Source: an uncultured Planctomycetales bacterium
GTDB lineage: Bacteria > Planctomycetota > Phycisphaerae > UBA1845 > PWPN01
DNA: 37,256 bases
Assembly: GCA_964611365.1 (NCBI GenBank)
Contig: CAZSYS010000004.1
Coordinates: 1-37,256 of the forward strand
Reading direction: 5' to 3'
Shown here piece after piece: positions 1 to 28,209 of this stretch (the first letter of the stretch is position 1; each line of letters starts with the position of its first letter). The translations under genes and the position numbers were made by a program. The notes beneath the pieces were generated by a model that saw only the letters and a program-made list of their open reading frames with translations, was not told where the DNA came from and searched no databases.

Positions 1-687
1 GTCTACGACAGGCCGATGCTCCACTACCCGATCGAATGCCTGGTCAACGCGGGCATCCGCGACATCCTGCTGGTGACCGGGGGCGACCATGCCGGCGACT
101 TCCTGCGGCTGCTGGGCAACGGCCGGCAGTTCGGCCTGAGCGAGCTGCATTACACCTACCAGGAGGGTGAAGGCGGGATCGCGGATGCCCTTCGGCTGGC
201 GGAGGATTTCGCGGACGGCGACAAGATCGTGGTGGTCCTGGGCGACAACATCATCCAGAAGAACATCCGCAAGGCCGTCGGGGGCTTCTTCTCCCAGCGG
301 CGGGGAGCCCGGATCCTGCTGAAGGAGGTGGACGACCCGCAGCGCTTCGGGGTGGCCGAGATCCGGGGGGACATGGTGGTCGGAATCGAGGAGAAGCCCG
401 CGGAGCCCAAGAGCCGGCTGGCGGTGATCGGCATCTACATGTACGACCGGCAGGTCTTCGATTTCATCCGCGAACTGAAGCCGTCGGGGCGGGGCGAGCT
501 GGAGATCACCGACGTGAACAACGCCTACATCGCCCAGGGCACCATGACCTGCGAGATGCTGGACGGCTGGTGGACCGACGCGGGAACGTTCGAGTCGCTG
601 CACCGGGCGGGCAACCTCGTGGCCGAGGGAGGAGCCAACCTCGTGGACGACGACGCGACCGTCCCGCCGGCAGGGAGCCGGGCATGA
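1..687 (+). CDS. rmlA: Glucose-1-phosphate thymidylyltransferase-type sugar nucleotidyltransferase (5' partial, open to window start)
   Basis: Frame 1 is open from base 1 (VYDRPMLHYPIE...). Nucleotidyltransferase-fold motifs are present: LLVTGGDHAGDF, GEGGIADAL, VVVLGDNI, EEKPAEPKSRLAVIGIYMY, ELEITDVN. The stop overlaps the rmlB start (ATGA at 684-687), and rmlB and rmlD follow. Confidence 0.8.
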   Translation, partial: VYDRPMLHYPIECLVNAGIRDILLVTGGDHAGDFLRLLGNGRQFGLSELHYTYQEGEGGIADALRLAEDFADGDKIVVVLGDNIIQKNIRKAVGGFFSQRRGARILLKEVDDPQRFGVAEIRGDMVVGIEEKPAEPKSRLAVIGIYMYDRQVFDFIRELKPSGRGELEITDVNNAYIAQGTMTCEMLDGWWTDAGTFESLHRAGNLVAEGGANLVDDDATVPPAGSRA

Positions 688-1694
688 GGACCTTCCTGGT
701 CACCGGGGCCGCGGGGTTCATCGGGGCCAACTTCGTGCGTCAGCTCATCGAGGAGGACCCGGGGGTCCGGGTCGTGGCCTACGACGCCCTGACCTACGCG
801 GGCAATCTCGAGAACCTGGAGGGCTTCCTGGAGCACGACCGGCTGCGGTTCGTGCGCGGCGACATCGGCGACGCCGGCGCGGTGCGCGCCGCCCTGGGGG
901 ACGGAGTGGACGTGGTGGTGAACTTCGCCGCCGAAAGCCACGTGGACCGCAGCATCCTGGGGGCCGGCGATTTCGTGCGGACCAACGTGCTGGGAACGCA
1001 GGTGCTGCTGGACGAGTGCCGGGCCCGCGGCCCGGGGCTCTTCGTACAGATCTCCACCGACGAGGTCTACGGCTCGCTGGGGCCGTCCGGCCGGTTCACG
1101 GAGGACACGCCCCTGGCTCCCAACAGCCCCTACAGCGCCTCCAAGGCGGCCGCGGACCTGCTGGTCCGGGCCTACCACCACACCTACGGCCTACCCGCGG
1201 TCATCACCCGCTGCTCGAACAACTACGGCCCCTACCAGTTCCCCGAGAAGCTGATCCCGCTGTTCATCACCAACCTCATGGAAGGCCGCAAGGTGCCAGT
1301 GTACGGCGACGGCCTGCAGATCCGCGACTGGATCCACGTGTCCGACCACTGCCGGGCGATCCGGGCGGTGATCGAGGGCGGCCGGCCGGGGCGGGTCTAC
1401 AACATCGGGGGCAGCAACGAGCGGAGCAACCTGGAGATCACCCGCCTGCTGCTGGCCGCCCTGGGCCGCGGCGAGGACATGATCGAGCACGTCAAGGACC
1501 GTCCCGGGCATGACCGCCGCTACGCGGTCGACAGCGCGCGGATCGAGGCGGAGCTGGGCTGGCGCCCGCGGGTCGGCTTCGAGGCCGGACTGGCCGACAC
1601 CGTCGCCTGGTACCGGTCCCACGAGCCCTGGTGGCGCCGCATCAAGAGCGGGGCCTACCGGTCGTACTACGAGAGGCAGTATGGCCGGGGCTGA
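684..1694 (+). CDS. rmlB: dTDP-glucose 4,6-dehydratase
   Basis: MRTFLVTGAAGFIGANF Rossmann motif, ISTDEVYG, and YSASKAA catalytic YxxxK. C-terminal HDRRYAVD and WYRSHEPWW are typical of RmlB. I chose ATG 684 (ATGA overlap with rmlA) rather than the Arg-rich upstream extension from 570. Confidence 0.93.
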   Translation: MRTFLVTGAAGFIGANFVRQLIEEDPGVRVVAYDALTYAGNLENLEGFLEHDRLRFVRGDIGDAGAVRAALGDGVDVVVNFAAESHVDRSILGAGDFVRTNVLGTQVLLDECRARGPGLFVQISTDEVYGSLGPSGRFTEDTPLAPNSPYSASKAAADLLVRAYHHTYGLPAVITRCSNNYGPYQFPEKLIPLFITNLMEGRKVPVYGDGLQIRDWIHVSDHCRAIRAVIEGGRPGRVYNIGGSNERSNLEITRLLLAALGRGEDMIEHVKDRPGHDRRYAVDSARIEAELGWRPRVGFEAGLADTVAWYRSHEPWWRRIKSGAYRSYYERQYGRG

Positions 1695-2562
1695 GCGGAT
1701 CTGCATCGTCGGGGCGCGCGGCATGCTGGGGCGGGAGCTCGTCGAGGCCTGCGCGGCCATGGAGTCCGGGGTTCTGTCGACCTGCCAGGCGATCGACCGC
1801 GAGGAGATCGACATTGCCGACGAATCCTCGGTCCGGCGGGTTCTGGACGACCTGGTCCCTGGGGTGGTGATCAACGCCGCGGCGTACACCGACGTGGACG
1901 CCTGTGAGCGTCACGAGGCCGAAGCCACGGCGGTCAACGGGCACGGCCCCGGACATCTGGCGGCCTGGTGTTGCCGCCGCGGGGCCCGCTTCGTCCATGT
2001 GAGCACCGATTTCGTCTTCGACGGCCGCAAGGACGGCCCCTATATGCCCGAGGACGAGGTGTGTCCGCTGAGCGCCTACGGCCGCAGCAAGCTGGAGGGC
2101 GAGCGCCGGGTCCTGGCGGCCTCGCCGGAGCACGCGGTGGTCCGCACCAGCTGGCTGTTCGGCGTGCACGGCGGCAATTTCGTCAAGACCATTCTGCGGC
2201 TGTCGCGCGAACGCGGGGAAATCAGCGTGGTCACCGACCAGGTGGGCCGGCCGACCTGCGCCCGGGACCTGGCCGGGGCGCTGCTGCGGCTGGCGCGGAC
2301 CCGTGCCGGCGGTCTGTTTCATTTTGCCAACCACGGGGCTTGCTCCTGGTACACGTTCGCCGAGGAGATCGTACGGCTGGCCGGCGGCACCACCCGGATC
2401 CTGCCGCTGACCAGCGACCGGCTTGGCCGGCCGGCGGTGCGTCCGGCGTGGTCGGTGCTGGACACCGGGCGGATCGAACGGACGCTGGGGATCGTGCCGC
2501 GGCACTGGAAGGAAGCGCTGGCCGAGTGCCTGCCCGAGCTGTTGAGGCCGGCGGCGGCCTGA
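1681..2562 (+). CDS. rmlD: dTDP-4-dehydrorhamnose reductase
   Basis: ICIVGARGMLGREL nucleotide-binding start, INAAAYTDVDACE, VHVSTDFVFDG and YGRSKLEGE (YxxxK) are typical of RmlD. ATG 1681 overlaps the rmlB end by 14 nt. Confidence 0.9.
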   Translation: MAGAERICIVGARGMLGRELVEACAAMESGVLSTCQAIDREEIDIADESSVRRVLDDLVPGVVINAAAYTDVDACERHEAEATAVNGHGPGHLAAWCCRRGARFVHVSTDFVFDGRKDGPYMPEDEVCPLSAYGRSKLEGERRVLAASPEHAVVRTSWLFGVHGGNFVKTILRLSRERGEISVVTDQVGRPTCARDLAGALLRLARTRAGGLFHFANHGACSWYTFAEEIVRLAGGTTRILPLTSDRLGRPAVRPAWSVLDTGRIERTLGIVPRHWKEALAECLPELLRPAAA

Positions 2563-2639: not shown

Positions 2640-2897
2640 ATGGAGCTGGAGAGGAGTATCCGCTCGCTGGTGGTGGAGAACTTCCTGCTGGGCCGCGAAG
2701 AAGGTCTGAGTTCGAGCCAGTCGCTGCTGTCCACCGGCGTGGTGGACTCCACCGGCGTGCTGGAGCTGGTCAGTCTGCTCGAGAAGAGCTTCCAGATCAA
2801 GGTGGCCGACCAGGACCTGGTGCCGGAGAACCTGGACAGCATCGACAACATCGTGCGTTTCGTTCAAGGCAGGATCTCGGCCCGGGGAACGGCCTGA
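2640..2897 (+). CDS. Acyl carrier protein-like (phosphopantetheine-binding)
   Basis: 85 aa and acidic. The helix-2 motif GVVDSTGVLELVSLLE contains a DS(T) serine in the position used for phosphopantetheine attachment. It has a strong RBS and sits directly upstream of an adenylating ligase. Confidence 0.8.
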   Translation: MELERSIRSLVVENFLLGREEGLSSSQSLLSTGVVDSTGVLELVSLLEKSFQIKVADQDLVPENLDSIDNIVRFVQGRISARGTA

Positions 2898-2910
2898 CGC
2901 GGGCACGCTC

Positions 2911-4479
2911 ATGAGAATCCTGGTCCACGATTTCCTGACGGACAGCGCCCGGCGGCATCCGGACAGGGACTACCTGCTGTGCGAGGGCGCGCGGCAGACG
3001 TTCGGCCGGACGGAGCGGGACAGCGACCTGCTGGCCTGCGGGCTGCAGGACGCCGGTATCCGCCGGGGCGACCGCGTGGCGGTCTTCATGGAGAACTCGC
3101 CGGAGCTGGTCACGGCGGTGTTCGGCATCCTGAAGGCCGGGGCCGTGTTCGTGGTGATCAACCCGACGACCAAGGCCAGGAAGCTGGCCTACATCCTCAA
3201 CGACTGCGGGGTCCGGGCGGTGATCGCCCAGCCCTCGCTGGCCCCGGTGGTCGCGGAGGTGCTGCCGCAGGCGCCCTCGGCGGCGCTGCTGATCTGGACG
3301 GGCGATCCCGCCCCGGGCGCTCCGGCCGGCGCGACCTTTGCGGCGGTTACGGCCGGTCCCCACCGCAGGCCCGCGGACCCCGGGCTGATCGACCACGATC
3401 TGTGCACCATCATCTACACCTCGGGCTCGACCGGCGATCCCAAGGGCGTGATGCTGACCCACCGCAACATGACCAACACCGCCTGGGCGATCTCCACTTA
3501 TCTCGGCAACGTGCCGGAGGACGTGGTCATCTGTCTGCTGCCGATGTCGTTCGACTACGGGCTGTACCAGGTGATCACCGGGGCCCGGGTCGGTTTCACG
3601 GTCGTGATCGAGAAGTCCTTCGCCTATCCCTACCACGTGCTCAGGCGGATGGCCGAGCACCGCGTCACCGGGCTGCCGGGCGTGCCGACGATCTTCGCCA
3701 CGCTGCTGCAGATGGCCCCCTTCGACGGGCTGGACCTGTCGTCGATGCGCTACCTGTCCAACACCGCCGCGGCGCTGCCGCCGGCCCACATCCGCCGCCT
3801 GCGGGAGCTGTTTCCGGGCGCGAAGGTGTTCTCCATGTACGGCCTGACGGAATGCACGCGGGTGTGCTACCTGGACCCCGCGCGGCTCGAGGACAAGATC
3901 GCCTCGGTCGGCAAGGCGATGCCCAACGAGGAGGTCTACATCGTCGACGAGCAGGGCCGGCGCGTCGGACCGGGGGTCGTCGGGGAGCTGGTGATCCGCG
4001 GCGCCAACGTGATGCGGGGTTATTGGGGCAAGCCGGAGGCCACCGCCGAGCGTCTGCGGGAAGGGGACATCCCCGGGGAGAAGGTGCTCTATTCGGGCGA
4101 CTGGTTCAAGGCCGACGAGGAGGGCTTTCTCTACTTCGTGGGCCGCAAGGACGACGTCTTCAAGTGCAAGGGCGAGAAGATCAGCCCCAGGGAGATCGAG
4201 AACGTCCTGTACGAGATGGAGGCCGTGGCGGAGGCGGCGATCATCGGCGTGGAGGACCCCATCGACGGCGCGGCCGTCAAGGCGATCGTCGCCCCGCGGA
4301 AAGGATACGTGCTCACGGAGCGCGACGTCCGCCAGCACTGCCGCGCGAGGCTCGAGAACTACATGGTGCCCAGGTTCGTCGAGATCCGCGAATCGCTGCC
4401 CAAGACCGAATCGGGCAAGATCAAGAAGAGCGTGCTCCAGGCCGAGCAGGCGGGCAGGCAGGGACCGGACCCGGGATAG
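2911..4479 (+). CDS. AMP-forming acyl-CoA/acyl-ACP ligase (ANL superfamily adenylating enzyme)
   Basis: AMP-binding motif IIYTSGSTGDPKGVMLTHRN, then YGLTE and GDWFKADEEGFLYFVGRKDD, and C-terminal PKTESGKIKK. Length is 522 aa. Confidence 0.88.
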   Translation: MRILVHDFLTDSARRHPDRDYLLCEGARQTFGRTERDSDLLACGLQDAGIRRGDRVAVFMENSPELVTAVFGILKAGAVFVVINPTTKARKLAYILNDCGVRAVIAQPSLAPVVAEVLPQAPSAALLIWTGDPAPGAPAGATFAAVTAGPHRRPADPGLIDHDLCTIIYTSGSTGDPKGVMLTHRNMTNTAWAISTYLGNVPEDVVICLLPMSFDYGLYQVITGARVGFTVVIEKSFAYPYHVLRRMAEHRVTGLPGVPTIFATLLQMAPFDGLDLSSMRYLSNTAAALPPAHIRRLRELFPGAKVFSMYGLTECTRVCYLDPARLEDKIASVGKAMPNEEVYIVDEQGRRVGPGVVGELVIRGANVMRGYWGKPEATAERLREGDIPGEKVLYSGDWFKADEEGFLYFVGRKDDVFKCKGEKISPREIENVLYEMEAVAEAAIIGVEDPIDGAAVKAIVAPRKGYVLTERDVRQHCRARLENYMVPRFVEIRESLPKTESGKIKKSVLQAEQAGRQGPDPG

Positions 4480-4492
4480 GGGGCCTCAAGGC

Positions 4493-6514
4493 GTGTGTGG
4501 TATCGCGGGCATCCTGGCGGGTCCCGGGCAGGGGCCGGTCGCCTTCGAGGATCTGCGGCGCATGGTGGCCATGCTTCGCCACCGGGGCCCGGACGGGTAC
4601 GGCCTGTACCGCGACGAACGCGTCGGGCTGGGGCACGCCCGGCTGAGCATCATCGACGTGGAGGGGAGTGCCCAGCCGCTGGCCAGCGAGGACGAATCGG
4701 TCTGGATCACGTTCAACGGCGAGATCTTCAACTACATCGAGCTGCGCGAGGAGCTCCGGGCGCGCGGGCATCGCTTTCGCACCGCCGGCGACACCGAGGT
4801 CATCGTTCACTGCTACGAGGAGTACGGCGAACGGGCCTGGGAGAAGCTGAACGGCCAGTTTGCCTTCGGCCTGTGGGACTCGGCCCGGCGGGTCCTGTGG
4901 CTGGTGCGCGACCGGCTGGGCATCCTGCCTCTGTTTCACGCCCGCGCCGACGGCCGGGTGCTGTTTGCCTCGGAGGCCAAGGCGATCTTCGCCGCCGGCG
5001 CGGTCGTGCCGCGGCTGTCCGGGCCGGCGGTGGCCGAGGTCTTCACCCGCTGGGCGGTCCCGGCGCCGGCCACGGTCTTCGAGGGCATCCGCGGGCTGCC
5101 TCCGGCCGGCTGGGCGTGTTTCGACGACCAGGGGCGGGAGACCTGCGGCATCTACTGGCGCCCGCAGTTCCGGGACGATCCGGTCCTGGCCGCATCGTCG
5201 CCGGAGGAGGCGGCCGACGCGCTGGAGGAGAAACTCGCCCGGGCGGTGAGCCTCCGGCTGCGGGCGGACGTGCCCGTCGGAGCCTACCTCAGCGGGGGGC
5301 TGGACTCCTCGACGATCGGGGCGCTGATCCGCAGGTCCGACAGCAGTCCGCTGCAGACCTTCGCCATACGCTTCGAGGACCCGGTCTTCGACGAGACTCC
5401 GCAGCAGCGCCGCATGGCCGGGCTCCTGGGGACGCGGCACCACGAGATCCTGTGCGGAGCCCGGGAGATCCGGCAGGCCCTGCCGGAGGTCGTATGGCAT
5501 TGCGAGATGCCGCTGCTGCGGACCGCGCCGGCGCCGCTGTTCCTGTTGTCGGGCCTGGTTCGCGACCACGGCATGAAGGTCGTGCTGACCGGGGAGGGCG
5601 CCGACGAGTTCCTGGCCGGCTACGATATCTTCAAGGAGGACATGATCCGGCGGTTCTGGGCCCGCCGGCCGGATTCGTCCTGGCGGCCGGCCCTGCTGTC
5701 GCGGCTCTACGGCGACGTCGGATCCGCCCGGCAGCGCGGCACGCGGATGTGGCAGCAGTTTTTCGGCCGGGGGCTGACCGGCGCCGACGATCCGTACTAC
5801 TCGCACCGCATCCGCTGGCAGAACACCGCCTGGGCGACGGCGGTGCTGTCGCCGGATCTGCGGCGCCTGGCGGAAGGCCCGGACGGCGATCGAAGCCTGG
5901 CCGGGGCGCTGCCGGACGGATGGCTGCAGCGGCCGGCCCTGGACCGGGCCCAGATGATCGAGATCGCCACCTTTCTGAGCCCGTACCTGCTGAGCTGTCA
6001 GGGCGACCGCGTGGCCATGGGGCACGGAGTCGAGGTGCGCTACCCCTTCCTGGATCCGGAGGTGGTGGAGTTCTGCCTGGGGCTGCCGCCCAGGCTCCGG
6101 CTGCGCGGACTGACCGACAAGGCCGTGCTGCGCCGGATGGGCGTGCGTCACCTGCCGGTGGAGATCTGGAACCGGCCGAAGAAGCCGTACCGGGCCCCGA
6201 TGACGCAGGCGTTCTTCGCTCCGGGTCCGGCGGACTATGTCGATGAGCTGCTCTCGCCCGGGGCCCTGGCGGCGTGGGGCCTGGCGGACCCCGGGCCGGC
6301 CGGTCGCCTGGTGGACAAGGCCAGGCGGCAGTCGGGCCGGATGTCCGGGGAGCGCGAGGAGATGGCCCTGGTGGGTCTGCTGACGTTGCAGCTGCTGGGG
6401 CGCTTCTTCCTCCAGGGCTTTGCGGGCCGGGTCCAGGAGGCCCTTCGGCGCCTGGAGACTTCGGCCCCCGACGTGCTGTGCGACCGGGCGGGGGATGCGG
6501 CGGTCGCGGCCTGA
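4493..6514 (+). CDS. Asparagine synthase-family glutamine amidotransferase (AsnB-like)
   Basis: GTG start followed by CGIAGIL (Ntn nucleophile Cys2). RGPDG and GEIFNY belong to the glutaminase domain. The PP-loop AYLSGGLDSS belongs to the synthetase domain. Length is 673 aa. Confidence 0.9.
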   Translation: MCGIAGILAGPGQGPVAFEDLRRMVAMLRHRGPDGYGLYRDERVGLGHARLSIIDVEGSAQPLASEDESVWITFNGEIFNYIELREELRARGHRFRTAGDTEVIVHCYEEYGERAWEKLNGQFAFGLWDSARRVLWLVRDRLGILPLFHARADGRVLFASEAKAIFAAGAVVPRLSGPAVAEVFTRWAVPAPATVFEGIRGLPPAGWACFDDQGRETCGIYWRPQFRDDPVLAASSPEEAADALEEKLARAVSLRLRADVPVGAYLSGGLDSSTIGALIRRSDSSPLQTFAIRFEDPVFDETPQQRRMAGLLGTRHHEILCGAREIRQALPEVVWHCEMPLLRTAPAPLFLLSGLVRDHGMKVVLTGEGADEFLAGYDIFKEDMIRRFWARRPDSSWRPALLSRLYGDVGSARQRGTRMWQQFFGRGLTGADDPYYSHRIRWQNTAWATAVLSPDLRRLAEGPDGDRSLAGALPDGWLQRPALDRAQMIEIATFLSPYLLSCQGDRVAMGHGVEVRYPFLDPEVVEFCLGLPPRLRLRGLTDKAVLRRMGVRHLPVEIWNRPKKPYRAPMTQAFFAPGPADYVDELLSPGALAAWGLADPGPAGRLVDKARRQSGRMSGEREEMALVGLLTLQLLGRFFLQGFAGRVQEALRRLETSAPDVLCDRAGDAAVAA

Positions 6515-6545
6515 ACCGGCGCGGCGACGTGGCGTGGTTTGAATC

Positions 6546-7547
6546 ATGAGCACGATCGATTCACGGGAGCAGCCGCCGGGGGCGACCTGGCTGGAGATCG
6601 ACTGCTCCGGCGAGGTCCGGCGGATCGAGGAGGCGATCCGCGACGCGGTGCGCGGGCTCAGGCGGCGGGGCGTGGTCGTGGCGGTCAGCGGCGGCGTGGA
6701 CTCGGCGGTGTGCGCGGTGCTGGCGGCCCGGGCCCTGGGGCCGCAACGGGTGTTCGGCCTGCTGCTGCCGGAGCGCGACTCGGCGGCCGACACCAGCGCC
6801 AGGGGCCGCCTGGTCTGCGACTTCGCGGGGATCGGGTTCGAGATCCAGGACATCGCCCCGGCGCTGGAGGCCCTGGGGTGCTACCGGCGCCGCGACGAGG
6901 CCGTGCGGCGGCTGTTCCCGGACTTCGGCGACGGCTGGCGGATGAAGATCGCCGTGGCCGACGACCTGCTCGGCCGCGAGCGCGTGAACTACTTCAACCT
7001 GATCGTCGAGTCGCCGCAGGGCCGGCGGGAGCGGGCCCGGATGCCGGTGGAGGTGTATCTGCAGGTGGTGGCGGCCACCAACATGAAGCAGCGGACGCGG
7101 AAGCTGTTCGAGTACTACCACGCCGAGCGGATGAACTGCGCGGTGCTGGGCACGCCCAACCGGCTGGAGTATGATCTGGGCTTCTTCGTCCGCGGAGGCG
7201 ACGGCCTTGCGGATCTCAAGCCGATCTCGCATCTTTACAAGAGGCAGGTCTACGCCCTGGCGCGGCACCTGGACCTGCCCGAGGAGATCCGCAACCAGCC
7301 GCCGAGCACGGATACCTACAGTCTGCCGCAGACGCAGGAGGAGTTCTATTTCGCGCTGCCTTACGACCTGATGGACCTGATGCTGTTCGCTGTTCACAAC
7401 GGCGTTCCGGCGGAGGAGGCTGCGCGGGCTTGCGGCCTGACGGCCGGGCAGGTCGAGAGAGTCTACCGGGATATCGCCGCCAAGCGGCGCACCGCGCGGC
7501 AGCTTCTCCAGCCGGCGCTGCGGGCCGACGGAGCGGGCGAGGAATGA
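6546..7547 (+). CDS. NAD+ synthetase (NadE)-like PP-loop ATP pyrophosphatase
   Basis: PP-loop VVVAVSGGVDSAV, NMKQRTRKLFEYYHAE, GTPNRLEYDLGFFVRGGDGLADLKPISHLYKRQVYALARHL and PPSTD resemble ammonia-dependent NadE. The genomic context is not NAD biosynthesis. Confidence 0.78.
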   Translation: MSTIDSREQPPGATWLEIDCSGEVRRIEEAIRDAVRGLRRRGVVVAVSGGVDSAVCAVLAARALGPQRVFGLLLPERDSAADTSARGRLVCDFAGIGFEIQDIAPALEALGCYRRRDEAVRRLFPDFGDGWRMKIAVADDLLGRERVNYFNLIVESPQGRRERARMPVEVYLQVVAATNMKQRTRKLFEYYHAERMNCAVLGTPNRLEYDLGFFVRGGDGLADLKPISHLYKRQVYALARHLDLPEEIRNQPPSTDTYSLPQTQEEFYFALPYDLMDLMLFAVHNGVPAEEAARACGLTAGQVERVYRDIAAKRRTARQLLQPALRADGAGEE

Positions 7548-7606
7548 GTTCGCGCCGCGGACCGACCGGCCGTCGGGTTCTGCCGGGTCGGCTTTCCTTC
7601 CCGGAC

Positions 7607-7612
7607 GGAGGA
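7607..7612 (+). promoter_or_regulatory. Shine-Dalgarno (GGAGGA) for the exosortase gene
   Basis: GGAGGA lies 5 nt upstream of TTG 7618 and 11 nt upstream of ATG 7624. Confidence 0.55.
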
Positions 7613-7617
7613 AGTTC

Positions 7618-8643
7618 TTGAGAATGCGCTGCGGTGCCCGAGCGCACGACACACCGGGAGGTCATTTGCCGCAACGTGCGACATTGACGGTGCGGAGCAG
7701 CACCGCCCGGGGGCGAACGGCTCCCGTGTCGCGGGTGGTCCAGCGGGAGCGGTTGTTTCGGCTCGCCCCGGCCGTGGGGCTGCTGGCGGTCTTCTTCTGG
7801 AGCTACATGCCGACGCTGGCCTTCCTGTGGAGAACGTGGCAGAACGACGGGGACTACTCCGCCGGGCAGCTGGTGCCGGTGGTGTTTGCGTATGTGCTCT
7901 GGTCCCGGAGGAAGCTGCTGAGCCAGCTGGAGTTCCAGCCGTGCTGGTGGGGGCTGGTGGTGCTGCTGGGCGCCCAGGCCATCCGGCTCGGCGGCCTGCT
8001 GTTGAGCTACGGGTCGGCCGAGCCGTTCTCGCTGGTCCTGACGGTTTTCGGGGTGTTCCTGCTGATCGCCGGCCGGAGGTTCACGCGATGGATCTTCTGG
8101 CCGCTGGTGTTCCTGTTCCTGATGGCCCCGCTGCCCAGACGCGTTCACGCCGCCGTGGCGCTGCCCCTGCAGAGCTTTGCGACCACCTCGGCGGTTTTCG
8201 GGCTTGAGCTTTTCGGCTACCTGGTCAGCCGCGAGGGCAACGTGCTGAAGCTGCCGCAGGGAACGGCCGTCAACGTGGCCGAGGCCTGCAGCGGTCTGCG
8301 CATGCTGACGGCCTTCGTGGTGGTGGCGTCGGCGATGGCGTTCGCGATCCGGGCGCCCAAGTGGCTCAAGGCGGCACTGGCGCTTTCCAGCCTGCCGGTG
8401 GGCGTGCTGTCGAACTCCCTGCGCCTCCTGGTGACCGTGCTCCTGCACGAATCGCTCGGCGGCGAGGCCGGGCAGAAGTTCCTGCACGACTTTGCCGGTT
8501 TGACGATGATGCCTCTGGCGGTGCTGATCCTGCTCGGCGAGCTCAGGCTGCTGCGCTGGATCGAGCACGGCCAGACGGGCAGCGGAGGGCGGCCGGCGAC
8601 GGCATTACGGGCCGGTGCCGGTCCGGTCCGCCCGACGGCCTGA
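7618..8643 (+). CDS. Exosortase (EpsH/Xrt family transpeptidase)
   Basis: Polytopic membrane protein with the exosortase signature VNVAEACSGLRML (catalytic Cys), LSNSLRLLVTVLLHE (Arg/His) and the N-terminal WQNDGDYSAGQLVP motif. The start is TTG 7618 or ATG 7624, both behind a strong SD. Confidence 0.88.
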   Translation: MRMRCGARAHDTPGGHLPQRATLTVRSSTARGRTAPVSRVVQRERLFRLAPAVGLLAVFFWSYMPTLAFLWRTWQNDGDYSAGQLVPVVFAYVLWSRRKLLSQLEFQPCWWGLVVLLGAQAIRLGGLLLSYGSAEPFSLVLTVFGVFLLIAGRRFTRWIFWPLVFLFLMAPLPRRVHAAVALPLQSFATTSAVFGLELFGYLVSREGNVLKLPQGTAVNVAEACSGLRMLTAFVVVASAMAFAIRAPKWLKAALALSSLPVGVLSNSLRLLVTVLLHESLGGEAGQKFLHDFAGLTMMPLAVLILLGELRLLRWIEHGQTGSGGRPATALRAGAGPVRPTA

Positions 8644-8649
8644 AACCCC

Positions 8650-9405
8650 ATGGTTCGCGTCGCGATGACACCGCCGTCTTCGGACGTGCACACGGCTGCA
8701 CCGCCCCGGGCGCATGGATTCGCACTGGCGGCCTGTGTGGCGGTGCTGCTGGGCGGCGGTCTGGCCCATCGCTGGATCGATCGTGTTCTCGAGGCTCCGG
8801 GGACGTCGCCGGTCGTGCTCGACCGGCCGCTGTCGACGCTTCCGATGCGGCTGGGGCCGTGGGAAGGGGCCGACGTGCCGCTGAGCAAGCGGGTCATCGA
8901 GGTGGCCGGATCGGACGACCACGTGTATCGGCGCTACTTCAATACCTTGACCGGCGAGGTGGTCGATCTCTACGTGGCCTATGCGGCCCGGCCCGCCAGG
9001 ATGCTGGGGCATCGGCCGCAGGTCTGCTTTCCGGCGCAGGGCTGGGCCGCGGCCGGCCATCACCCGGACGAGGTGCCGTTGCCGTCGGGCGGGAGCCTTC
9101 CGTGCCTGATGCACCGCTTCACCCGGGGTGGACCGGGCGGGGAGTCGGTGGTGATGCTGAACTACTACAACCTCGCCGGCCGTCACGTGACCGACTGGAC
9201 GGAGTTCTGGGGGCCGCGCTGGCGGCTGCCCAATCTTGCGAGAGATCCGCGGTATTTCGTGGCTCAGGTGCAGATCAGCACTGTGGCTTCCGACGTCGAT
9301 CCGCCGGGGCAGGCGGAGGAGCGGATCAGGCGGTTCGCGGCCGAGGCGGTGCCGGGCATCAGCGCCTTCTGGCCCGATGACACCCGAGAAGCAGGCGGGG
9401 ACTGA
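8650..9405 (+). CDS. EpsI-family exosortase-associated protein
   Basis: It lies 6 nt downstream of the exosortase. It has a single N-terminal TM (FALAACVAVLLGGGL), then LGPWEG.DVPL, DDHVYRRY, DLYVAYA and HRPQVCFPAQGW, as in EpsI proteins (separate from, or fused to, exosortases). Confidence 0.8.
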   Translation: MVRVAMTPPSSDVHTAAPPRAHGFALAACVAVLLGGGLAHRWIDRVLEAPGTSPVVLDRPLSTLPMRLGPWEGADVPLSKRVIEVAGSDDHVYRRYFNTLTGEVVDLYVAYAARPARMLGHRPQVCFPAQGWAAAGHHPDEVPLPSGGSLPCLMHRFTRGGPGGESVVMLNYYNLAGRHVTDWTEFWGPRWRLPNLARDPRYFVAQVQISTVASDVDPPGQAEERIRRFAAEAVPGISAFWPDDTREAGGD

Positions 9406-9438
9406 GGGCGGTCCTGTTGTCGCCCAGGAGCCAATATA

Positions 9439-10638
9439 GTGACAACGGAAGTCCGCCATTCGAAGGCTGCGTCCGGGCCGAATGCGGCGCCTCATGCATC
9501 AGCAACCATGGGGGAGTGCCGCCCATCGGGCGGCGGTGCCGCCCCGTTTACGGTTCGAGCGTGCCTCGCCGAGGACATGGCGCAGGTGGCTGACCTGCAT
9601 GCCCGCGTCTTCTGGGAGGGCAAGTCCGGCCCGACCGAGGGCCTTCGCCGCTACTACGCGAAAGTATTCCTGGAGAACCCGTGGCTTCAGGAGGATATGC
9701 CTTCGCTGGTGTGCGAGAACCTGCAGGGTGCAATCGTCGGCTTCATGGGCCGGATCTGTCGCCGGATGCTTTTCCATGGGCGACCGATTCGCGTGGCGAT
9801 CGCGCACCGGCTGATGGTTGCTCCGGAGCAACGCAATCCCCTGATCGGCGCCCGGATGGTCAAGACGTTCTTCAGCGGTCCTCAGGATCTGTGCCTGTCG
9901 GACGGTGTCTCGCCGGACGGCAAGCGGATCTGGGAGGCGGCGGGCGGCATCGCGGTTCCGGCATACAGCATGAACTGGATCCGCCCGCTTCGACCCGCCG
10001 GGCTGCTTTGCAAGGCTCTGGCTTGCGAATGCGGGATGAATGGGCTGAGCCGGGCGACGCAGCCCCTGGCGCGGGCGATCGACGTGGTCCTCGACTGTAT
10101 GCGGTGGACTCCCTTTCGGCAGGTGGCCCCTGCCACTCTCGAGGAGCCCATGACCCCCGAAAGGCTTCTCGAGTGCACCGCAGTCTTTGCCCGGACGCGG
10201 GCACTCCGCCCCGAACTGGACGCGGGGTCGCTGGCCTGGCTCCTGGAAAGGCTCGAGGAGAACCGGCACCGGGGTGAACTGCGCGGCTTCATCGTCAGGA
10301 CGGAAGGCGGTCAAATGCTCGGCGGCTGCCTGTACTACCTTCGCCGGCAGGACCTCAGCGAGGTGATGCTGCTGGCGGTCGACGGCCGGTCGGCGGGGCA
10401 GGTGTTGCGGCACCTGTTTCATCGCGCCTGGCGGGAGGGCGCGGTTGGACTGCAGGGTCGATTTGATCCGGCCCACCTGGCGGGCCTGATGGACCAGCGC
10501 TGCCTGTGCAAGCGGGGCAACTGGATGATGGTTCACTCCCGTGACCGGGATGTGCTTTGTGCCATCCAGCGGGGAGATGCGTTTCTGACGTGCCTGGAAG
10601 GCGAGCTGTGGCTGCGCTCGCCGGAAAACCGCATCTGA
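9439..10638 (+). CDS. GNAT-superfamily acyltransferase-like protein (assignment tentative)
   Basis: GTG 9439 is preceded by AGGAG (9426-9430). The N-terminal part (VRACLAEDMAQVADLHARVF...IVGFMG...IAHRLMVAPEQRNPLIGARMVK) looks like a GNAT acetyl/acyl-CoA binding core. The C-terminal ~200 aa are unassigned. Confidence 0.5.
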   Translation: MTTEVRHSKAASGPNAAPHASATMGECRPSGGGAAPFTVRACLAEDMAQVADLHARVFWEGKSGPTEGLRRYYAKVFLENPWLQEDMPSLVCENLQGAIVGFMGRICRRMLFHGRPIRVAIAHRLMVAPEQRNPLIGARMVKTFFSGPQDLCLSDGVSPDGKRIWEAAGGIAVPAYSMNWIRPLRPAGLLCKALACECGMNGLSRATQPLARAIDVVLDCMRWTPFRQVAPATLEEPMTPERLLECTAVFARTRALRPELDAGSLAWLLERLEENRHRGELRGFIVRTEGGQMLGGCLYYLRRQDLSEVMLLAVDGRSAGQVLRHLFHRAWREGAVGLQGRFDPAHLAGLMDQRCLCKRGNWMMVHSRDRDVLCAIQRGDAFLTCLEGELWLRSPENRI

Positions 10639-13207: not shown

Positions 13208-13235
13208 AGACCCCGGCGATCCCGGAAGGCTCTGA

Positions 13236-13745: not shown

Positions 13746-14050
13746 GCGTGTGCCGCCCGGATGAGTCGCATGCGGCCGACCCGGTGCCGCCCCTGGCCGC
13801 AGGAAAGCAGGACCGGTGTCCGGCGGAGTTGCCGGTGCCTTGCCGCTGGCGGCTCTGCCGGCTGATGCCGGCGCCCGGCGCCTCCGCCGAGGCCTTCGAT
13901 GACAAGGCACAGCCGCGCGAGGCTCGGGAATGGGCAGCGGACAAACCTCCGGGATGCCGCCGGCCGTATCCGCACTGCCAGATCCTGCGGCCGGCGGAGC
14001 CCTGGAACGCCGAGGCGGCCGCCGGCCAGCCTCTGCGGCACCGTTTGTAC

Positions 14051-15853: not shown

Positions 15854-16523
15854 TCTGGTCAAAGCGTGAGCCCGGAGGCCGGACGGGTAGGGGCCCACAG
15901 TGCATTACGGCGACCTCCGCGAACGGCGCAACCGGATGTGCCGTTCGGCCGGTGCGATACCCGCCAGGCCGGACGCGACGTCCGCGGCGTCTCCCCAATC
16001 CGGACTCTTCGGGTGCCCGGGATCCTGGACGGCGAAGACATCCGAAGTGTCCTTGTCCGGCAGAGGGGCACAGCAGATTCCGAGAGCCCAAAGCAATCCA
16101 AGCCGGCGCGTGAGAACGTGGTTTGGGCCGGCGATCAAAGCAAATCGCAGCAGCAGATCCAACGGCACGCCCAGCAGCCCGCGGTGGCCGGAGAAGGTGG
16201 ACAATCCCTTGACGCCTCGAATGACAGACCCCGGGCTTGGCGGCCAATCGGTCATGGAGCGTCTCCGCGGTGCCGGCCACGGCGTTGCCCCGTGCACACC
16301 TGCGGGTCCCAACCTGCAAGACTGTAGCCGCAGAACCGAGGATCACCGAGCAGTGCCCCGCCTTTTTCGTGCGTTTTCGTGCTTCTTGTGGCGGCTCTTC
16401 GTGCCGGTGAAGGATCATGGTCACAGGAACTCACAAAAAGCGGCAAGAAGCGAACTGTGCGAACCATACGGACTCTGTGCTCATGGGACAGTCTCCAGCC
16501 GGGACGTGAGAACAGTGCCCGCA
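15854..16523. other. Apparently non-coding spacer inside the locus (may extend to 16661)
   Basis: No ORF has protein-like composition. Three-frame GC3 sampled at 16081-16140 is flat (50-70%). Overall GC is visibly lower than in the flanks. The heptamer TTCGTGC occurs at 16366, 16376 and 16398. Confidence 0.5.
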
Positions 16524-17483
16524 ATGCGGTGCGGCCCACCGGTTGTCGACAGATTCACGGGGCCAGGTGCATCAGCCGGGCAACGGCTGGTGAAACCTCC
16601 TTCGCAACAGGTCCCGCCCCGTCGTGCGTCTCGCGGGATCTACGGACGCCGCGGGGGGCTGGTGCGGTGCGTCTACCTCGTCATCGCGGTTCTGTGGTGG
16701 GGGCTGGGGCGCCTGGCGGGATGGACGGGCGGCAGGACCGTCGTTCTGTGCTACCACGGGGTTCGCCGGCCCCAGCGGGATCGCTTTGCCTGGCAGATGC
16801 GCCGGATCGCAGGCCGAGCCGTGGAGGTTCTGCCGGGGCACGATCGCTCCCATCCTCGATGCTCGGCCCCGAAGGTGTGCGTGACCTTCGACGACGGCTT
16901 TGCCTGTCTGCTGGAGAATGCCTTCCCGGTCATGCGGTCTCTGGGGATCCCTTGTACGGTCTTCCCCGTGACGGGCAACCTGGGCGACCGGCCCCGCTGG
17001 TGTATGCCGGCCGGACATCCCGAGGCCGCCGAAAGGCTGATGACCGCCGAGGAGGTCCGCGCGGCACAAGACTCGGGCATGTGCCGGATCGGTTCGCACA
17101 CGCTCACGCATCCCCGGCTGGGGGACCTGAAGGATCCTGAAACGCTCCGCAGAGAAATCGAGGAATCCAGGGCAGCCCTTGAGACCATCACCGGCTCGGT
17201 GGTCGAGGATCTCGCCCTGCCGCACGGGTCCTGCACGCCGGCCACGCTTGCGGCGGCACGGGCGGCCGGTTATCGGCGCATCTTCACGCTGGGCGAGCGG
17301 CTCTGGTCAGGCCGGGCGGAGGACGATGTGATCGGCCGCTTCCCGATGTCGCCCGACGTCTGGAAACTCGAGTTCCTGCTGACCTGCGAGGGGGCGTATT
17401 CGTATCTGTATCACTGGCGACGATGTCTGCGGCGCGCCGGTAGCTGGATTTACGGCGGGGACGGGTCGAAGACGAACCCATGA
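16524..17483 (+). CDS. Polysaccharide deacetylase (CE4/NodB family), N-terminally membrane anchored
   Basis: TM segment VYLVIAVLWWGLGRLAGW, then VVLCYHGV, VTFDDGF (NodB motif 1) and IGSHTLTHPRL (motif 2). Start alternatives are ATG 16524 and GTG 16662. In-frame GC3 at 16561-16620 is only ~55%, which favours the later start. Confidence 0.78.
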   Translation: MRCGPPVVDRFTGPGASAGQRLVKPPSQQVPPRRASRGIYGRRGGLVRCVYLVIAVLWWGLGRLAGWTGGRTVVLCYHGVRRPQRDRFAWQMRRIAGRAVEVLPGHDRSHPRCSAPKVCVTFDDGFACLLENAFPVMRSLGIPCTVFPVTGNLGDRPRWCMPAGHPEAAERLMTAEEVRAAQDSGMCRIGSHTLTHPRLGDLKDPETLRREIEESRAALETITGSVVEDLALPHGSCTPATLAAARAAGYRRIFTLGERLWSGRAEDDVIGRFPMSPDVWKLEFLLTCEGAYSYLYHWRRCLRRAGSWIYGGDGSKTNP

Positions 17484-20477: not shown

Positions 20478-20580
20478 GTACCGGTCCTGGGCAATGCCGG
20501 GTTTGGGTGACATAATATAGTCGCCTTTAAACAGCGATTCTCGGCGAAGGCTTCCGGGTTTTGCAGATGAGCCCTGCGAG
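20478..20580 (+). promoter_or_regulatory. AT-richer intergenic spacer, candidate internal promoter for the flippase operon
   Basis: This 103-nt gap follows a run of overlapping genes. It contains GGTGACATAATATAGTCGCCTTTAAACAGCG, the most AT-rich stretch in this part of the locus, with TATAAT-like hexamers (CATAAT / TAATAT). Confidence 0.3.
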
Positions 20581-24106: not shown

Positions 24107-24125
24107 GCGGCCGGCCGCAATAGCG

Positions 24126-25481: not shown

Positions 25482-25561
25482 ACCACCAGGGGCGACGACA
25501 ACGGGGGAACGCCTGAGGCCGCGGGCAGAGAATCCGACGACGGCGAGCGGCGCTCGTCGCG

Positions 25562-27026: not shown

Positions 27027-28160
27027 ATGCGCGAGTTGACGACCGCAGATCGCATCGGCAGCGTGAGAGCGGGCTGGCTCAAGCTGCGCAGCCTTCAGGC
27101 CAGGACTCCGCCCAGTGCTGATCCAGATCGTTTCCTGGCCACTTTGACAGCCATGAAGGATGCTGCGCCATACATCGCGGTGCTGGGCGGTAGTGATTCC
27201 CCATCCGCAATGGTCATCGCGAGGATCCAGAGGCGATCCTCTCAACGCTCCCTTGGTTACCTGCGGTTCGGGACGCCCAACCTGCGATATCTGGATGTGG
27301 TCTACGGCGGCTTGCTCACCGACCTCAGGCCAGAGTCCTGCCTCCAGGTTTCACAGCATCTCCAAAGCCTGCTTGACAGGGGTTACATCGATTGCGTGGC
27401 GATCAATCATCTGCCTGTGCGAGACCCTATGTTCTCGGCCCTTCATGCGCGCCGGATGCTGATCGCCCCGCCGGAAGCACACTGGCGACTTCTTCTGCAT
27501 CCGGACGGCTACGAGAAGACCATCGCGGGCTTCTCCAAGAAGCACCGCTACAACATGCGCCGATGCGAACGGCAGCTTCGAGATCACTTCAATGGTCACG
27601 TGAGGCTGCGGGTCTTCACGAGAGGACCGGAAGAGTTCGCCCCTGGAGCTGACCGCGTGGCGGCCAGTACATACCAGTTCGCGATGGGAGTAGGCTTCAG
27701 AGACTCCGCCGTGTGGCGGGCGATTCTGGAGAGCGAGGCTTGCCAGGCACGAATGCGATGCTATTGGCTGGAGTGCGAAGGCGAGCCCATCGCCTTTCAG
27801 GCAGGTTGTGTCTACGGGGACACCTACTTTCTGGAGGCGATCGGCTACCTACCCGAGCACCAACGACTCTCGCCGGGCACCGTGTTGCTTCTGCTCGTGC
27901 TCCAGGACCTCTGCAGCGAAGGCATCGGTGCCGTGGACTACGGGTTCGGGCATGCCGACTACAAGGAAATCTACGGCACCGAGTCCTGGGAAGAACGGAC
28001 CGTGTTGCTCTACGGGTCCGGGCTGCGTCTCGCGACCTGCATCGGGATGGAACGATGCTTCACCGTTCTTGACGGGATGGCGAAGCGGGGAGCCGAGAGG
28101 CTTGGCCTGCTGCGCAAGGTCAAGTCGCTCTGGAGGAGCCGACTCCGCAGGTCCCCCTGA
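27027..28160 (+). CDS. CelD/FemAB-like (Acetyltransf_6-type) GNAT-fold protein
   Basis: FSKKHRYNMRRCERQL and YFLEAIGYLPEHQRLSPGTVLLLLVLQDLCSEGIGAVDYGFGHADYKEIYG match the CelD-like pattern. It is a paralogue of the N-terminal domain of the 14051-15853 product. Confidence 0.75.
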   Translation: MRELTTADRIGSVRAGWLKLRSLQARTPPSADPDRFLATLTAMKDAAPYIAVLGGSDSPSAMVIARIQRRSSQRSLGYLRFGTPNLRYLDVVYGGLLTDLRPESCLQVSQHLQSLLDRGYIDCVAINHLPVRDPMFSALHARRMLIAPPEAHWRLLLHPDGYEKTIAGFSKKHRYNMRRCERQLRDHFNGHVRLRVFTRGPEEFAPGADRVAASTYQFAMGVGFRDSAVWRAILESEACQARMRCYWLECEGEPIAFQAGCVYGDTYFLEAIGYLPEHQRLSPGTVLLLLVLQDLCSEGIGAVDYGFGHADYKEIYGTESWEERTVLLYGSGLRLATCIGMERCFTVLDGMAKRGAERLGLLRKVKSLWRSRLRRSP

Positions 28161-28209
28161 AGACGGTGTTCCCGCACGCCTGGCACAAGGCCTCCGAGGA
28201 ATCGCGAGC

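Follow-up and report, generated by a model that had tools for sequence, protein, structure and literature searches.

A run of six genes at positions 2640-9405 of the window (the whole 37,256-nt stretch analyzed here) joins an exosortase and its partner EpsI to a carrier protein, an adenylating ligase and two amidating enzymes. This arrangement raises a question: Are the first four genes a new variant of an exosortase-associated pathway, as originally predicted, or a module of their own that shares a locus with the exosortase? The six open reading frames all lie on the + strand, and their coordinates reproduce exactly the predicted gaps of 13, 13, 31, 70 and 6 nt; in an independent annotation of an identical metagenome contig, the exosortase begins at 7666, which widens the fourth gap to 118 nt. 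Third-position GC is 0.83-0.93 in these frames, which backs all six of them. No terminator-like or promoter-like sites were found in the gaps between the six genes, with counts not above those of shuffled controls. The shared direction is not peculiar to these genes: about 24 + strand genes, the six included, form one run from position 1 to ~28.9 kb.

The domain assignments made for the six products all hold by Pfam or NCBIfam, that of the carrier protein narrowly. The carrier protein (ACP, 2640..2897, 85 aa) is the first gene of the cassette; it scores 21.0 bits against PF00550 (cutoff 20.8), matches other ACP models weakly, and holds the phosphopantetheine serine in a VDSTG motif. The ANL adenylate-forming ligase behind it (2911..4479, 522 aa; AMP-binding, 336 bits) is predicted to load it. 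The AsnB-type glutamine-dependent amidotransferase (4493..6514, 673 aa; TIGR01536, 473 against a cutoff of 267; GATase_7 plus Asn_synthase, 289 bits) has an N-terminal MCGI with the catalytic Cys2 and an SGGLDS PP-loop. The fourth product (6546..7547, 333 aa; NF002048, 465 against a cutoff of 313; NAD_synthase, 151 bits) is a NadE-like PP-loop ATP-dependent amidating enzyme that has an SGGVDS loop and lacks a glutaminase domain. Its model shows the NadE fold (TM 0.78 relative to 2E18) with an insertion of ~65 residues folded as a three-stranded sheet; in its family C112 and Y113 are invariant, R114-D117 nearly so, and the motif FFVRGGDG is again invariant. The run ends with the exosortase (7618..8643, or from the alternative start 7666; PF09721, Exosortase_EpsH, 205 bits; TIGR02602, 154 against a cutoff of 106) and the exosortase-associated protein EpsI (8650..9405; TIGR02914, 61 against a cutoff of 43; PF11984, DUF3485/EpsI, 93 bits).

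To describe the cassette across genomes, we used 80 genome loci carrying the NadE-like gene and examined 10 kb on each side. Ligase, AsnB and NadE-like genes are co-linear in 72 of these loci, in Azospirillum, Acidimicrobiales, Rhizobiaceae, Bacteroidota and others; most of the remaining eight are cut by a contig end. An ACP gene is detectable in 64 of the 72, in the same position and at 41-63% identity to the window ACP. An exosortase or EpsI lies within 10 kb in only 4 of the 80 loci, all Planctomycetota, and an exosortase search of plasmids returned no Sinorhizobium, Azospirillum or Ensifer replicon in its organism tally or among the 25 matches listed. In Acidimicrobiales the cassette stands alone between hom and lysA, and on Sinorhizobium meliloti pSymB it forms another isolated island, adjoining minCDE. 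Its placement relative to the exosortase-EpsI pair takes three arrangements: that of the window, that of the closest relatives L002 and L003, with the pair upstream of ACP, and that of L004 and L088. The position of the NadE-like gene beside the exosortase, to which the original prediction drew attention, is a local rearrangement: L002 and L003 carry the pair before ACP. The recurrence of the link in several Planctomycetota, in three arrangements, could indicate a real functional tie in that lineage.

A fifth member usually travels with the cassette: a tandem-GNAT N-acyltransferase, encoded in the window at 9439..10638 (+ strand, 353-399 aa depending on the start) and separated from the other four by the exosortase and EpsI. 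A GNAT gene lies next to the cassette in at least 52 of the 80 loci; L002 and L003 have it immediately behind NadE, Rhizobiaceae loci ahead of AsnB. In Azospirillum and Acidimicrobiales, too, a GNAT follows NadE, and hhalign shows the window protein to be its homologue (probability 97%, E 5e-11). For the AlphaFold model of the window protein (pLDDT 92), N-myristoyltransferases come up as structural matches (E 4e-12, TM about 0.5). In other phyla the family adjoins different ligase-plus-carrier pairs; it is found with unrelated ligase, carrier and tailoring sets in polysaccharide loci that also hold deacetylases.

The conserved co-linearity, the rarity of a neighboring exosortase, the isolated islands and the shifting place of the exosortase-EpsI pair all support the independence of the module. 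We therefore consider it probable that the genes at 2640-7547, together with the GNAT, form a self-contained and widespread module for making and transferring an acyl group, and that the exosortase lies beside it by virtue of a shared polysaccharide locus. Because so many bacteria carry the cassette with no exosortase nearby, its placement here points to a common sugar-polymer locus rather than to a new exosortase pathway. In the present genome it would count among the variable modules with which a Phycisphaerae-type polysaccharide locus tailors its sugars. Such a locus has a conserved head that includes rmlA, rmlB and rmlD (1..2562, + strand, rmlA partial; NTP_transferase, TIGR01181 at 467 bits and TIGR01214 at 313 bits) and also the exosortase-EpsI pair; L089 has the order rmlA-rmlB-rmlD-exosortase-EpsI without the cassette.

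How might such a module work? In a first step, the ANL ligase would adenylate a carboxylic acid bearing a further anionic group and pass it as a thioester to the holo-carrier protein. Among solved structures the ligase lies nearest to NRPS adenylation domains and to VinN (PDB 3WVN), a stand-alone enzyme that loads an ACP; VinN ranks sixth among distinct solved sequences (245 bits) and is the top match outside gramicidin synthase. The pocket residues Y236, M322, C328 and R330, of which R330 supports this step, recur in all but two of the 69 cassette ligases (67 of 69); position 235 (Asp235, the amino-group anchor) is not conserved among the 69. VinN/VinL of vicenistatin and DltA/DltC of D-alanylation follow the same plan, a free-standing ANL enzyme loading a free-standing carrier whose group is then modified or transferred, and the window ACP resembles DltC in its DSTG motif and matches it weakly; the cassette differs from both systems in its lack of a conserved Asp235, in its tailoring enzymes (AsnB and NadE-like) and in its transferase (the tandem GNAT).

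The closest precedent for loading comes from S. meliloti. In E. coli, SMb20650 is reported to acylate holo-SMb20651, and it cannot stand in for FadD (Ramos-Vega et al. 2009, as related in PMC7232532). The pSymB locus of strain 1021 holds the same four families in one block, at 41-57% identity to the window proteins, with SMb20651 as the positional counterpart of the window ACP; the locus tags were matched to the block by replicon and context rather than accession, so that the reported loading would belong to this locus by position. The block begins with AsnB (AsnB-ACP-ligase-NadE), whereas the window order is ACP-ligase-AsnB-NadE, and unlike the window it has no adjoining exosortase or glycan genes, no adjacent GNAT, and minCDE next door. 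This gene set has been noticed before, and the window cassette is a further member of the same uncharacterized set.

In a second step, AsnB with glutamine and the NadE-like enzyme in an ammonia-type reaction would each spend ATP on converting a free carboxyl into a carboxamide; this carboxyl could belong either to the tethered group or to the acceptor. The catalytic Cys2 and PP-loop of AsnB and the PP-loop and fold of the NadE-like enzyme are consistent with this. The particular role of the NadE-like enzyme in the pathway is our guess. Azospirillum brasilense is described as having separate glutamine-dependent NadE1 and NadE2 enzymes (PMC7196632), beside which its cassette NadE-like gene would be an extra paralogue. 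The use of two amidating enzymes presents a puzzle: a simple dicarboxylate keeps one free carboxyl after thioester formation, which leaves the second enzyme unexplained. OxyD-type enzymes of oxytetracycline synthesis, AsnB homologues, amidate the distal carboxyl of a thioester-bound dicarboxylate, the malonyl starter; there the context is a polyketide, with neither a NadE-like enzyme nor GNAT transfer to a sugar.

In a third step, judged from fold and gene context, the tandem GNAT would take the completed acyl group off its pantetheine thioester and hand it to a free amine. Its adjacency to the cassette, its subfamily homology and its N-myristoyltransferase-like fold argue for this, as does the order in Azospirillum, deacetylase-ACP-ligase-AsnB-NadE-GNAT, after glycosyltransferase genes. 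Here the amine would most likely sit on an amino sugar that either of the two CE4 deacetylases in the locus has deacetylated. A candidate source is the polysaccharide deacetylase at 15900..17483 (+ strand; PF01522, 78 bits), which is co-linear in L002 and L003. The general idea of the original prediction, that an acid bound to the ACP is amidated and placed on a polymer, coincides with this model and gains support from it. The isolated Sinorhizobium and Acidimicrobiales cassettes have no adjoining sugar genes, which leaves room for an acceptor other than a polysaccharide.

Those same islands weigh on an alternative in which AsnB and the NadE-like enzyme amidate carboxyls of a sugar polymer or nucleotide sugar, giving a WbpS-like uronamide, and leave the ACP, ligase and GNAT to attach an unmodified acyl group on their own. 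The AsnB homologue WbpS does make a glucuronamide (PMC7468200), and the scheme accounts for two amidating enzymes without invoking a tricarboxylate. However, the four genes stay together in islands without sugar genes, and domain scans of the window found no uronic-acid pathway gene, UDP-sugar dehydrogenase or Wbp gene; we regard this division of labor as unlikely. It is quite unlikely, too, that the core cassette yields a small amidated molecule, soluble or lipid-like, such as an osmolyte, signal or natural product, and that its place in the polysaccharide locus here is secondary. The isolated cassettes on pSymB and in Acidimicrobiales fit this reading, as does the sizeable, though below-cutoff, score of AsnB (342 bits) against TIGR03104, a model of the NAGGN amidotransferase, but in the window, L002, L003, Azospirillum, L084 and L085 the module or GNAT lies amid glycosyltransferases, deacetylases and flippases.

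A further proposal links the cassette to the exosortase through the acceptor: an amine-bearing or amidated acyl group would be placed on a sugar, and the exosortase would then link the cleaved C-terminus of PEP-CTERM proteins to that group. The product would be a counterpart of the Wbp/Vim linking sugar whose synthesis depends on a carrier protein. In Wbp/Vim of type IX secretion, a CE4 deacetylase frees an amine, a GNAT/FemAB-type transferase acylates it anew and a carboxamide is formed by an AsnB-type enzyme, giving an N-seryl or N-glycyl N-acetyl-glucuronamide that serves a sortase-like attachment step (PMC7468200). This set was tested there, so that the claim of a chemistry never worked out is partly dated; the authors' extension to exosortase loci is speculative. 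The window run holds, all co-directional, two CE4 deacetylases, three FemAB-like genes, AsnB and the exosortase, and a FemAB-like/deacetylase pair at 27027..28923 (+ strand; acyltransferase 27027-28160, PF13480, 91 bits; CE4 deacetylase 27808-28923, PF01522, 90 bits) resembles the VimA/VimE arrangement. A carrier protein, a ligase and a NadE-like enzyme are all missing from Vim, and no uronic-acid pathway genes were detected in the window. The proposal seems improbable: most cassettes have no exosortase within 10 kb, the sampled neighborhoods of exosortase relatives have no cassette, no PEP-CTERM cargo was found in the window, and the ligase anchor Asp235 is not conserved.

The original prediction itself, a dedicated exosortase-A-type ligase/ACP/amidotransferase variant with NadE in place of a decarboxylase and two hydrolases, fares no better. 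A polysaccharide locus with an exosortase is likewise the setting of the canonical XrtA-associated set, which combines an ANL ligase (TIGR03098) and an AsnB-type amidotransferase (TIGR03108) with a PLP decarboxylase (TIGR03099), a carrier protein and two hydrolases; the window adds the NadE-like enzyme and tandem GNAT, and no PLP decarboxylase or alpha/beta hydrolase was found among the window ORFs scanned, in accord with what had been claimed. TIGR03098 is the top NCBIfam model for the ligase and TIGR03108 the second best for AsnB, the genes are tightly packed, and the link to exosortase or EpsI recurs in L002, L003, L004, L011 and L088 despite rearrangement (the pair occurs in L002, L003, L004, L088 and L089-L092, and EpsI only in L011). 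However, the ligase scores 468 bits against a cutoff of 592 and AsnB 402 against 817, and window matches to the XrtA/PEP-CTERM companion families TIGR03019 and TIGR03006 are weak and far under cutoff. The exosortase is below the cutoff of every subtype model (XrtA 151/208, XrtD 164/400) and by its sequence appears to belong to no named subtype. Its closest relatives are Phycisphaerae exosortases (45-61% identity), and the cassette is absent from all four of their sampled neighborhoods. By profile scores and gene neighborhoods (76 of 80 cassette loci without exosortase or EpsI within 10 kb), the very checks it had proposed, the predicted variant is largely refuted, and we give it little chance of being right. 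It is very improbable that these are ordinary genes of asparagine synthesis, NAD synthesis and fatty-acid activation, adjacent by chance: the automatic names suggest as much, and AsnB passes the cutoff of TIGR01536 and the NadE-like enzyme those of the NAD(+) synthase models NF002048 and TIGR00552, but SMb20650 cannot replace FadD in the account cited above, A. brasilense is described with its own NadE1 and NadE2, the NadE-like enzyme carries its insertion and an altered FVRGGDG motif, and co-linearity with ACP, ligase and GNAT is kept across phyla.

The window carries a polysaccharide biosynthesis locus of high GC content (about 0.62-0.73), in which a single long run of plus-strand genes extends from position 1 to about 28.9 kb. 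Domain searches place rmlA (partial), rmlB and rmlD first in this run, followed by six genes encoding an acyl carrier protein (ACP, 2640-2897), an ANL ligase (2911-4479), an AsnB amidotransferase (4493-6514), a NadE-like enzyme (6546-7547), an exosortase (Xrt, 7618-8643) and EpsI (8650-9405). Each of these six domain assignments lies above its curated threshold, and the coordinates and gaps given in the original prediction (13, 13, 31, 70 and 6 nt, with EpsI beginning 6 nt past the exosortase) proved exact; a separate gene prediction, made on a metagenome contig of identical sequence, sets the exosortase start 48 nt further on, for a gap of 118 nt. After the six genes come a weakly GNAT-like gene (9439-10638), a GT2 glycosyltransferase and a B12-binding radical SAM enzyme; then a double-GNAT protein, a CE4 polysaccharide deacetylase and a FemAB/Alg14 fusion with an Alg13-like partner; then a second GT2, a Wzx flippase, a pyruvyl transferase with a FrhB-like partner and a hexapeptide acetyltransferase. 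A membrane-sized ORF without a family and a further FemAB-like/CE4 deacetylase pair end the plus-strand run. On the minus strand lie a 1653-aa PKD-domain protein (29000-33961) and flagellar fliS and fliD (34217-37196), which close the window directly after the polysaccharide locus and for which we saw no tie to the cassette.

The first four of the six genes, here called the cassette, encode recognizable enzymes and a carrier. The carrier protein has its serine in the motif VDSTG. The AsnB protein is of the class II AsnB type, with an MCGI start (catalytic Cys2), an SGGLDS PP-loop, and GATase_7 plus Asn_synthase domains, and by its sequence is a complete amidotransferase dependent on glutamine and ATP. 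The NadE-like protein is a complete PP-loop enzyme with a NadE fold (TM 0.78 relative to 2E18): it scores 465 on NF002048 (cutoff 313) and 133 on TIGR00552 (cutoff 64), contains SGGVDS, and has no glutaminase domain. An insertion of about 65 residues, folded as a three-stranded sheet, takes the place of a short segment; across the family, C112 and Y113 are invariant, R114-D117 are near-invariant, and an invariant FVRGGDG stands where the two aligned NadE structures (2E18 and 3FIU) have FTK(W/F)GDG. Because A. brasilense is described as having separate glutamine-dependent NadE1 and NadE2 (PMC7196632), its cassette NadE-like gene looks like an extra paralogue, of which we found no discussion in a search of the NAD synthetase family literature.

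To define the distribution of the cassette, we used the NadE-like protein to scan a single genome of each species, confirmed a relative in 525 loci, and analyzed the best 80 of these 525. In 72 of the 80 loci, the genes for the ligase, AsnB and the NadE-like enzyme keep a co-linear arrangement, with an ACP detectable in 64, and most of the other eight are cut by a contig end. Loci with the module come from Proteobacteria, Actinobacteria, Planctomycetota and Bacteroidota; among the hosts are about 40 Azospirillum species, Acidimicrobiales, Phycisphaerae, Bacteroidota, Armatimonadota and, within the Rhizobiaceae, Sinorhizobium, Ensifer, Mesorhizobium and a Nitratireductor plasmid. The NadE-like gene also occurs in 116 plasmid or chromid records. 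In Azospirillum, a deacetylase gene directly precedes the ACP gene and follows three glycosyltransferase genes. The cassette plus GNAT of this genus adjoins an rRNA operon (LSU plus SSU) at 14331-18862 of the A. thermophilum locus and in several other loci (L021, L025, L027 and others), and about 35 Azospirillum draft contigs end roughly 2.3 kb past the start of the NadE-like gene, probably because of this neighboring operon.

The cassette usually has a fifth member. The product of 9439-10638 gives a weak, sub-threshold match to Acetyltransf_9 and has no solved-structure relative by sequence, but its gene clusters with the gene directly after NadE in the two closest relatives of the window (L002 and L003) and with the gene before AsnB in six Rhizobiaceae-type loci. 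The annotation "GNAT family N-acetyltransferase" is carried by the gene after NadE in Azospirillum, Acidimicrobiales and one Planctomycetota locus, and this subfamily is distantly homologous to that of the window gene (hhalign probability 97%, E 5e-11). Taking either subfamily, a GNAT adjoins the cassette in at least 52 of the 80 loci. The AlphaFold model of the window protein (pLDDT 92) finds its best matches among N-myristoyltransferases (E 4e-12, TM about 0.5 over about 330 columns), and on this model the protein is assigned as a tandem-GNAT N-acyltransferase, N-myristoyltransferase-like, with two GNAT domains per chain. N-myristoyltransferase is itself a tandem-GNAT enzyme, which takes an acyl group off a pantetheine thioester and transfers it to an amine. 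Members of the GNAT family (37-38% identity) also lie beside unrelated adenylating enzymes and carrier proteins accompanied by other tailoring genes: a Burkholderiales contig has a luciferase-like oxygenase, and a Blastocatellia contig has formyl- and carbamoyl-transferases. Both loci contain glycosyltransferases and a FemAB-like gene after the GNAT, and the Blastocatellia locus contains deacetylases as well. This gene content supports a general scheme in which a ligase and a carrier would be combined with variable tailoring enzymes and GNAT transfer, and the varied partner sets of the GNAT suggest that cell-surface polymers receive unusual N-acyl groups in a modular fashion.

The closest match to the cassette is a locus of Sinorhizobium meliloti. 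A pSymB-type replicon carries the same genes in the order AsnB-ACP-ligase-NadE, at 45, 41, 50 and 57% identity to the window proteins over most of each, and the same DNA is present on pSymB of strain 1021 at 96.5% identity. By replicon and context, rather than by accession, we matched this locus of co-linear homologues to SMb20650/SMb20651. The passage of PMC7232532 that deals with these genes, citing Ramos-Vega et al. 2009, describes SMb20650 as a predicted pSymB ligase co-transcribed with the ACP SMb20651, reports that co-expression of SMb20650 with holo-SMb20651 in E. coli yields acylated SMb20651, and states that SMb20650 does not substitute for FadD in growth on oleate. A literature search on the combined gene set found no paper assigning it a function. 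The window set is another, newly placed instance of a conserved, widespread cassette that has already been noticed and never characterized. This overturns nothing, but it marks an unexplained five-gene pathway (a carrier protein, a ligase, two ATP-dependent amidating enzymes and a tandem-GNAT transferase) that is still uncharacterized 17 years after the S. meliloti ACP was described. It also corrects the automatic names "NAD(+) synthase" and "asparagine synthase", which are misleading: the genes should be taken neither for housekeeping genes nor for exosortase accessories. The module is present in culturable, genetically tractable Azospirillum and Sinorhizobium, which makes its chemistry directly testable.

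What might this pathway make? The pocket of the ligase offers a partial answer. Its only conserved positions are Arg330, Tyr236, Met322 and Cys328, and the retention of Arg330 in 67 of 69 cassette ligases suggests an acid that bears a second anionic group. The window ligase shares with VinN, an enzyme for 3-methylaspartate, an FD motif (Asp235), a bulky residue at position 236 and Arg330; its score on the amino-acid adenylation model TIGR01733 is 287 bits, below the cutoff of 317. We rejected an amino-acid substrate as a family-wide claim because position 235, where Asp would anchor the amino group, is Gly in 42 of the 69 ligases (Asp in 18, Ser in 4, Thr in 4 and Asn in 1). The original prediction had proposed that an acid is activated, tethered to the ACP, and then amidated or installed on the polysaccharide or on a sorted protein, and this general chemical idea is reasonable. 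In our version, the ligase would load the carrier protein, as reported for the S. meliloti proteins, with an acid bearing a second anionic group; one or both of the amidating enzymes (AsnB, NadE-like) would convert its free carboxyl groups to carboxamides while it is tethered; and the GNAT would place the result on an amine, in the window probably that of a sugar which one of the two CE4 enzymes has de-N-acetylated.

Two points stand against this mechanism. A simple dicarboxylate leaves one carboxyl, so that the need for two amidating enzymes is without explanation, and some cassettes form islands without glycan genes. In the Acidimicrobiales locus L086, a six-gene island (5960-13445: ACP, ligase, AsnB, NadE-like, an Acetyltransf_9 GNAT and an Acetyltransf_6 FemAB-like gene) lies on the opposite strand between homoserine dehydrogenase (hom) and lysA, as in several other Acidimicrobiales loci, and the pSymB cassette adjoins minCDE; we found no glycan genes near the former or beside the latter. 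These islands suggest that the acceptor may differ between lineages, or that the product may be a small molecule.

For the surrounding locus, the best mechanistic precedent is the Wbp/Vim pathway, which makes the linking sugar of type IX secretion. There, the CE4 deacetylase VimE, the FemAB-like VimA (which matches TIGR03019) and the AsnB-type WbpS lead to an N-seryl/N-glycyl N-acetyl-glucuronamide, the sugar onto which cargo proteins are joined by the type IX sortase; as a speculation, the authors carry this scheme over to exosortase loci and their TIGR03108-type AsnB proteins (PMC7468200). The window has a CE4 deacetylase, a FemAB-like transferase and an AsnB; our scans of it found no Wbp, UDP-sugar dehydrogenase or uronic-acid pathway genes. 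By analogy, the cassette in Planctomycetota might make the handle of the exosortase: an amidated, possibly amine-bearing acyl group on a de-N-acetylated sugar, to which the cleaved C-terminus of PEP-CTERM proteins would be joined. If true, this would be a new ACP-dependent counterpart of the Wbp/Vim linking sugar, and the exosortase acceptor would finally be named. We consider it improbable, because the cassette usually lacks a neighboring exosortase and the exosortase a neighboring cassette, and because our scans of the window detected neither uronic-acid genes nor PEP-CTERM cargo: a simple pattern scan for the PEP-CTERM-type tail (motif, hydrophobic helix and basic tail) found none on any window ORF, the 1653-aa PKD protein included.

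Neighborhood searches in the two directions agree. In a sensitive search of six-frame ORFs, an exosortase or EpsI lies within 10 kb of the cassette in 4 of the 80 loci (L002, L003, L004 and L011), all from Planctomycetota; a metagenome contig, L088, provides a fifth case. For the exosortase search of plasmids, neither the organism tally nor the matches listed include a replicon from Sinorhizobium, Azospirillum or Ensifer. Conversely, the window exosortase has 598 relatives, the nearest from Phycisphaerae (45-61% identity), and none of four neighborhoods of such relatives on long contigs contains the cassette. Two of the four share a recurrent locus head (NusG-like, NTP-transferase, priming transferase and Xrt-EpsI, then variable glycan genes), and in one of these two, rml genes precede Xrt-EpsI within the head. 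The cassette thus occurs mostly without an exosortase nearby, contrary to the tie first proposed. The placement of the NadE-like gene beside the exosortase, which had been read as occupying a defined slot, is a local rearrangement, since the arrangement varies. In the window, rmlD precedes the cassette and Xrt follows it; in L002 and L003, the Xrt-EpsI pair stands upstream of the ACP gene, and a GNAT-like gene directly follows NadE; in L004 and L088, cassette and exosortase are divergently oriented. In loci of this type, the cassette behaves as one exchangeable tailoring module among others.

The more specific proposal, that the cassette is an undescribed variant of the exosortase-A-associated pathway, is not supported. 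Of the three refuting outcomes that the original prediction listed, two came about: scores under the model thresholds, and a cassette found mostly with no exosortase nearby. The ligase scores 468 bits against the exosortase-A-associated acyl-CoA ligase model TIGR03098 (cutoff 592), and AsnB scores 402 bits against the XrtA/PEP-CTERM amidotransferase model TIGR03108 (cutoff 817), while exceeding the cutoff of the generic asparagine synthase model TIGR01536 (473 bits, cutoff 267). The FemAB-like and deacetylase genes of the window also score below the XrtA-specific models. The exosortase and its adjoining EpsI do belong to the EpsH family, with 154 bits on TIGR02602 (cutoff 106) and 205 bits on PF09721, above cutoff, for the exosortase and 61 bits (cutoff 43) for EpsI, but no named subtype cutoff is reached (XrtA 151/208, XrtD 164/400, XrtW 153/425 and XrtB 96/275 bits, score/cutoff). 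The window ligase and AsnB are related more distantly to the exosortase-A-associated set and fall outside it, and the 2006 PEP-CTERM paper makes no mention of the ligase, decarboxylase or AsnB. The absence of companion genes noted in the original prediction did hold within the window, here the whole contig: domain scans of its ORFs found no PLP decarboxylase (TIGR03099) and no alpha/beta hydrolases. A PLP decarboxylase beside the Acidimicrobiales cassette, considered as the missing exosortase-A enzyme, is housekeeping LysA in a hom-thrC-lysA neighborhood (430 bits on the lysA model; 156 bits on TIGR03099, cutoff 478).

Several further features of these loci were observed. A scan of the gaps between the six genes for promoters and terminators gave nothing beyond shuffled expectation. 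Read by eye, the 70-nt NadE-Xrt spacer (7548-7617) contains an imperfect inverted repeat rich in GC (gaccgaccggc...gccgggtcggc) with a T-rich run after it; the terminator scan made no call there, and the repeat might weakly attenuate readthrough from the cassette to the exosortase. In L088, the exosortase gene divergent from the cassette (3536-5506, minus strand) encodes a 656-aa fusion with an N-terminal sugar-1-phosphate nucleotidyltransferase/hexapeptide region, and a second carrier-protein gene follows NadE. Large PKD-domain proteins lie near Phycisphaerae-type exosortases in the window (1653 aa), L089 (1037 aa, 12386-15499) and L091 (869 aa, 4798-7406).

GC content is 0.62-0.66 across 18000-30000, compared with 0.69-0.73 at 1-8 kb and from about 31 kb on, and given this drop the distal glycan genes may have been acquired separately from the cassette and rml genes. 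L002 and L003 keep the block at 10557-19066 (GT2, B12-binding radical SAM enzyme, a small ORF at 13236-13745, double GNAT, CE4 deacetylase and FemAB/Alg14 fusion) in co-linear order, and L011 does so in part; the presence of a B12 radical SAM enzyme in a polysaccharide locus hints at C-methylation or another radical sugar modification. Finally, the run at 21927-25481 (flippase, pyruvyl transferase, hexapeptide acetyltransferase, FrhB-like protein and the membrane ORF) also follows the cassette in L022, a Planctomycetales MAG (9313-15675), at 52-67% identity.
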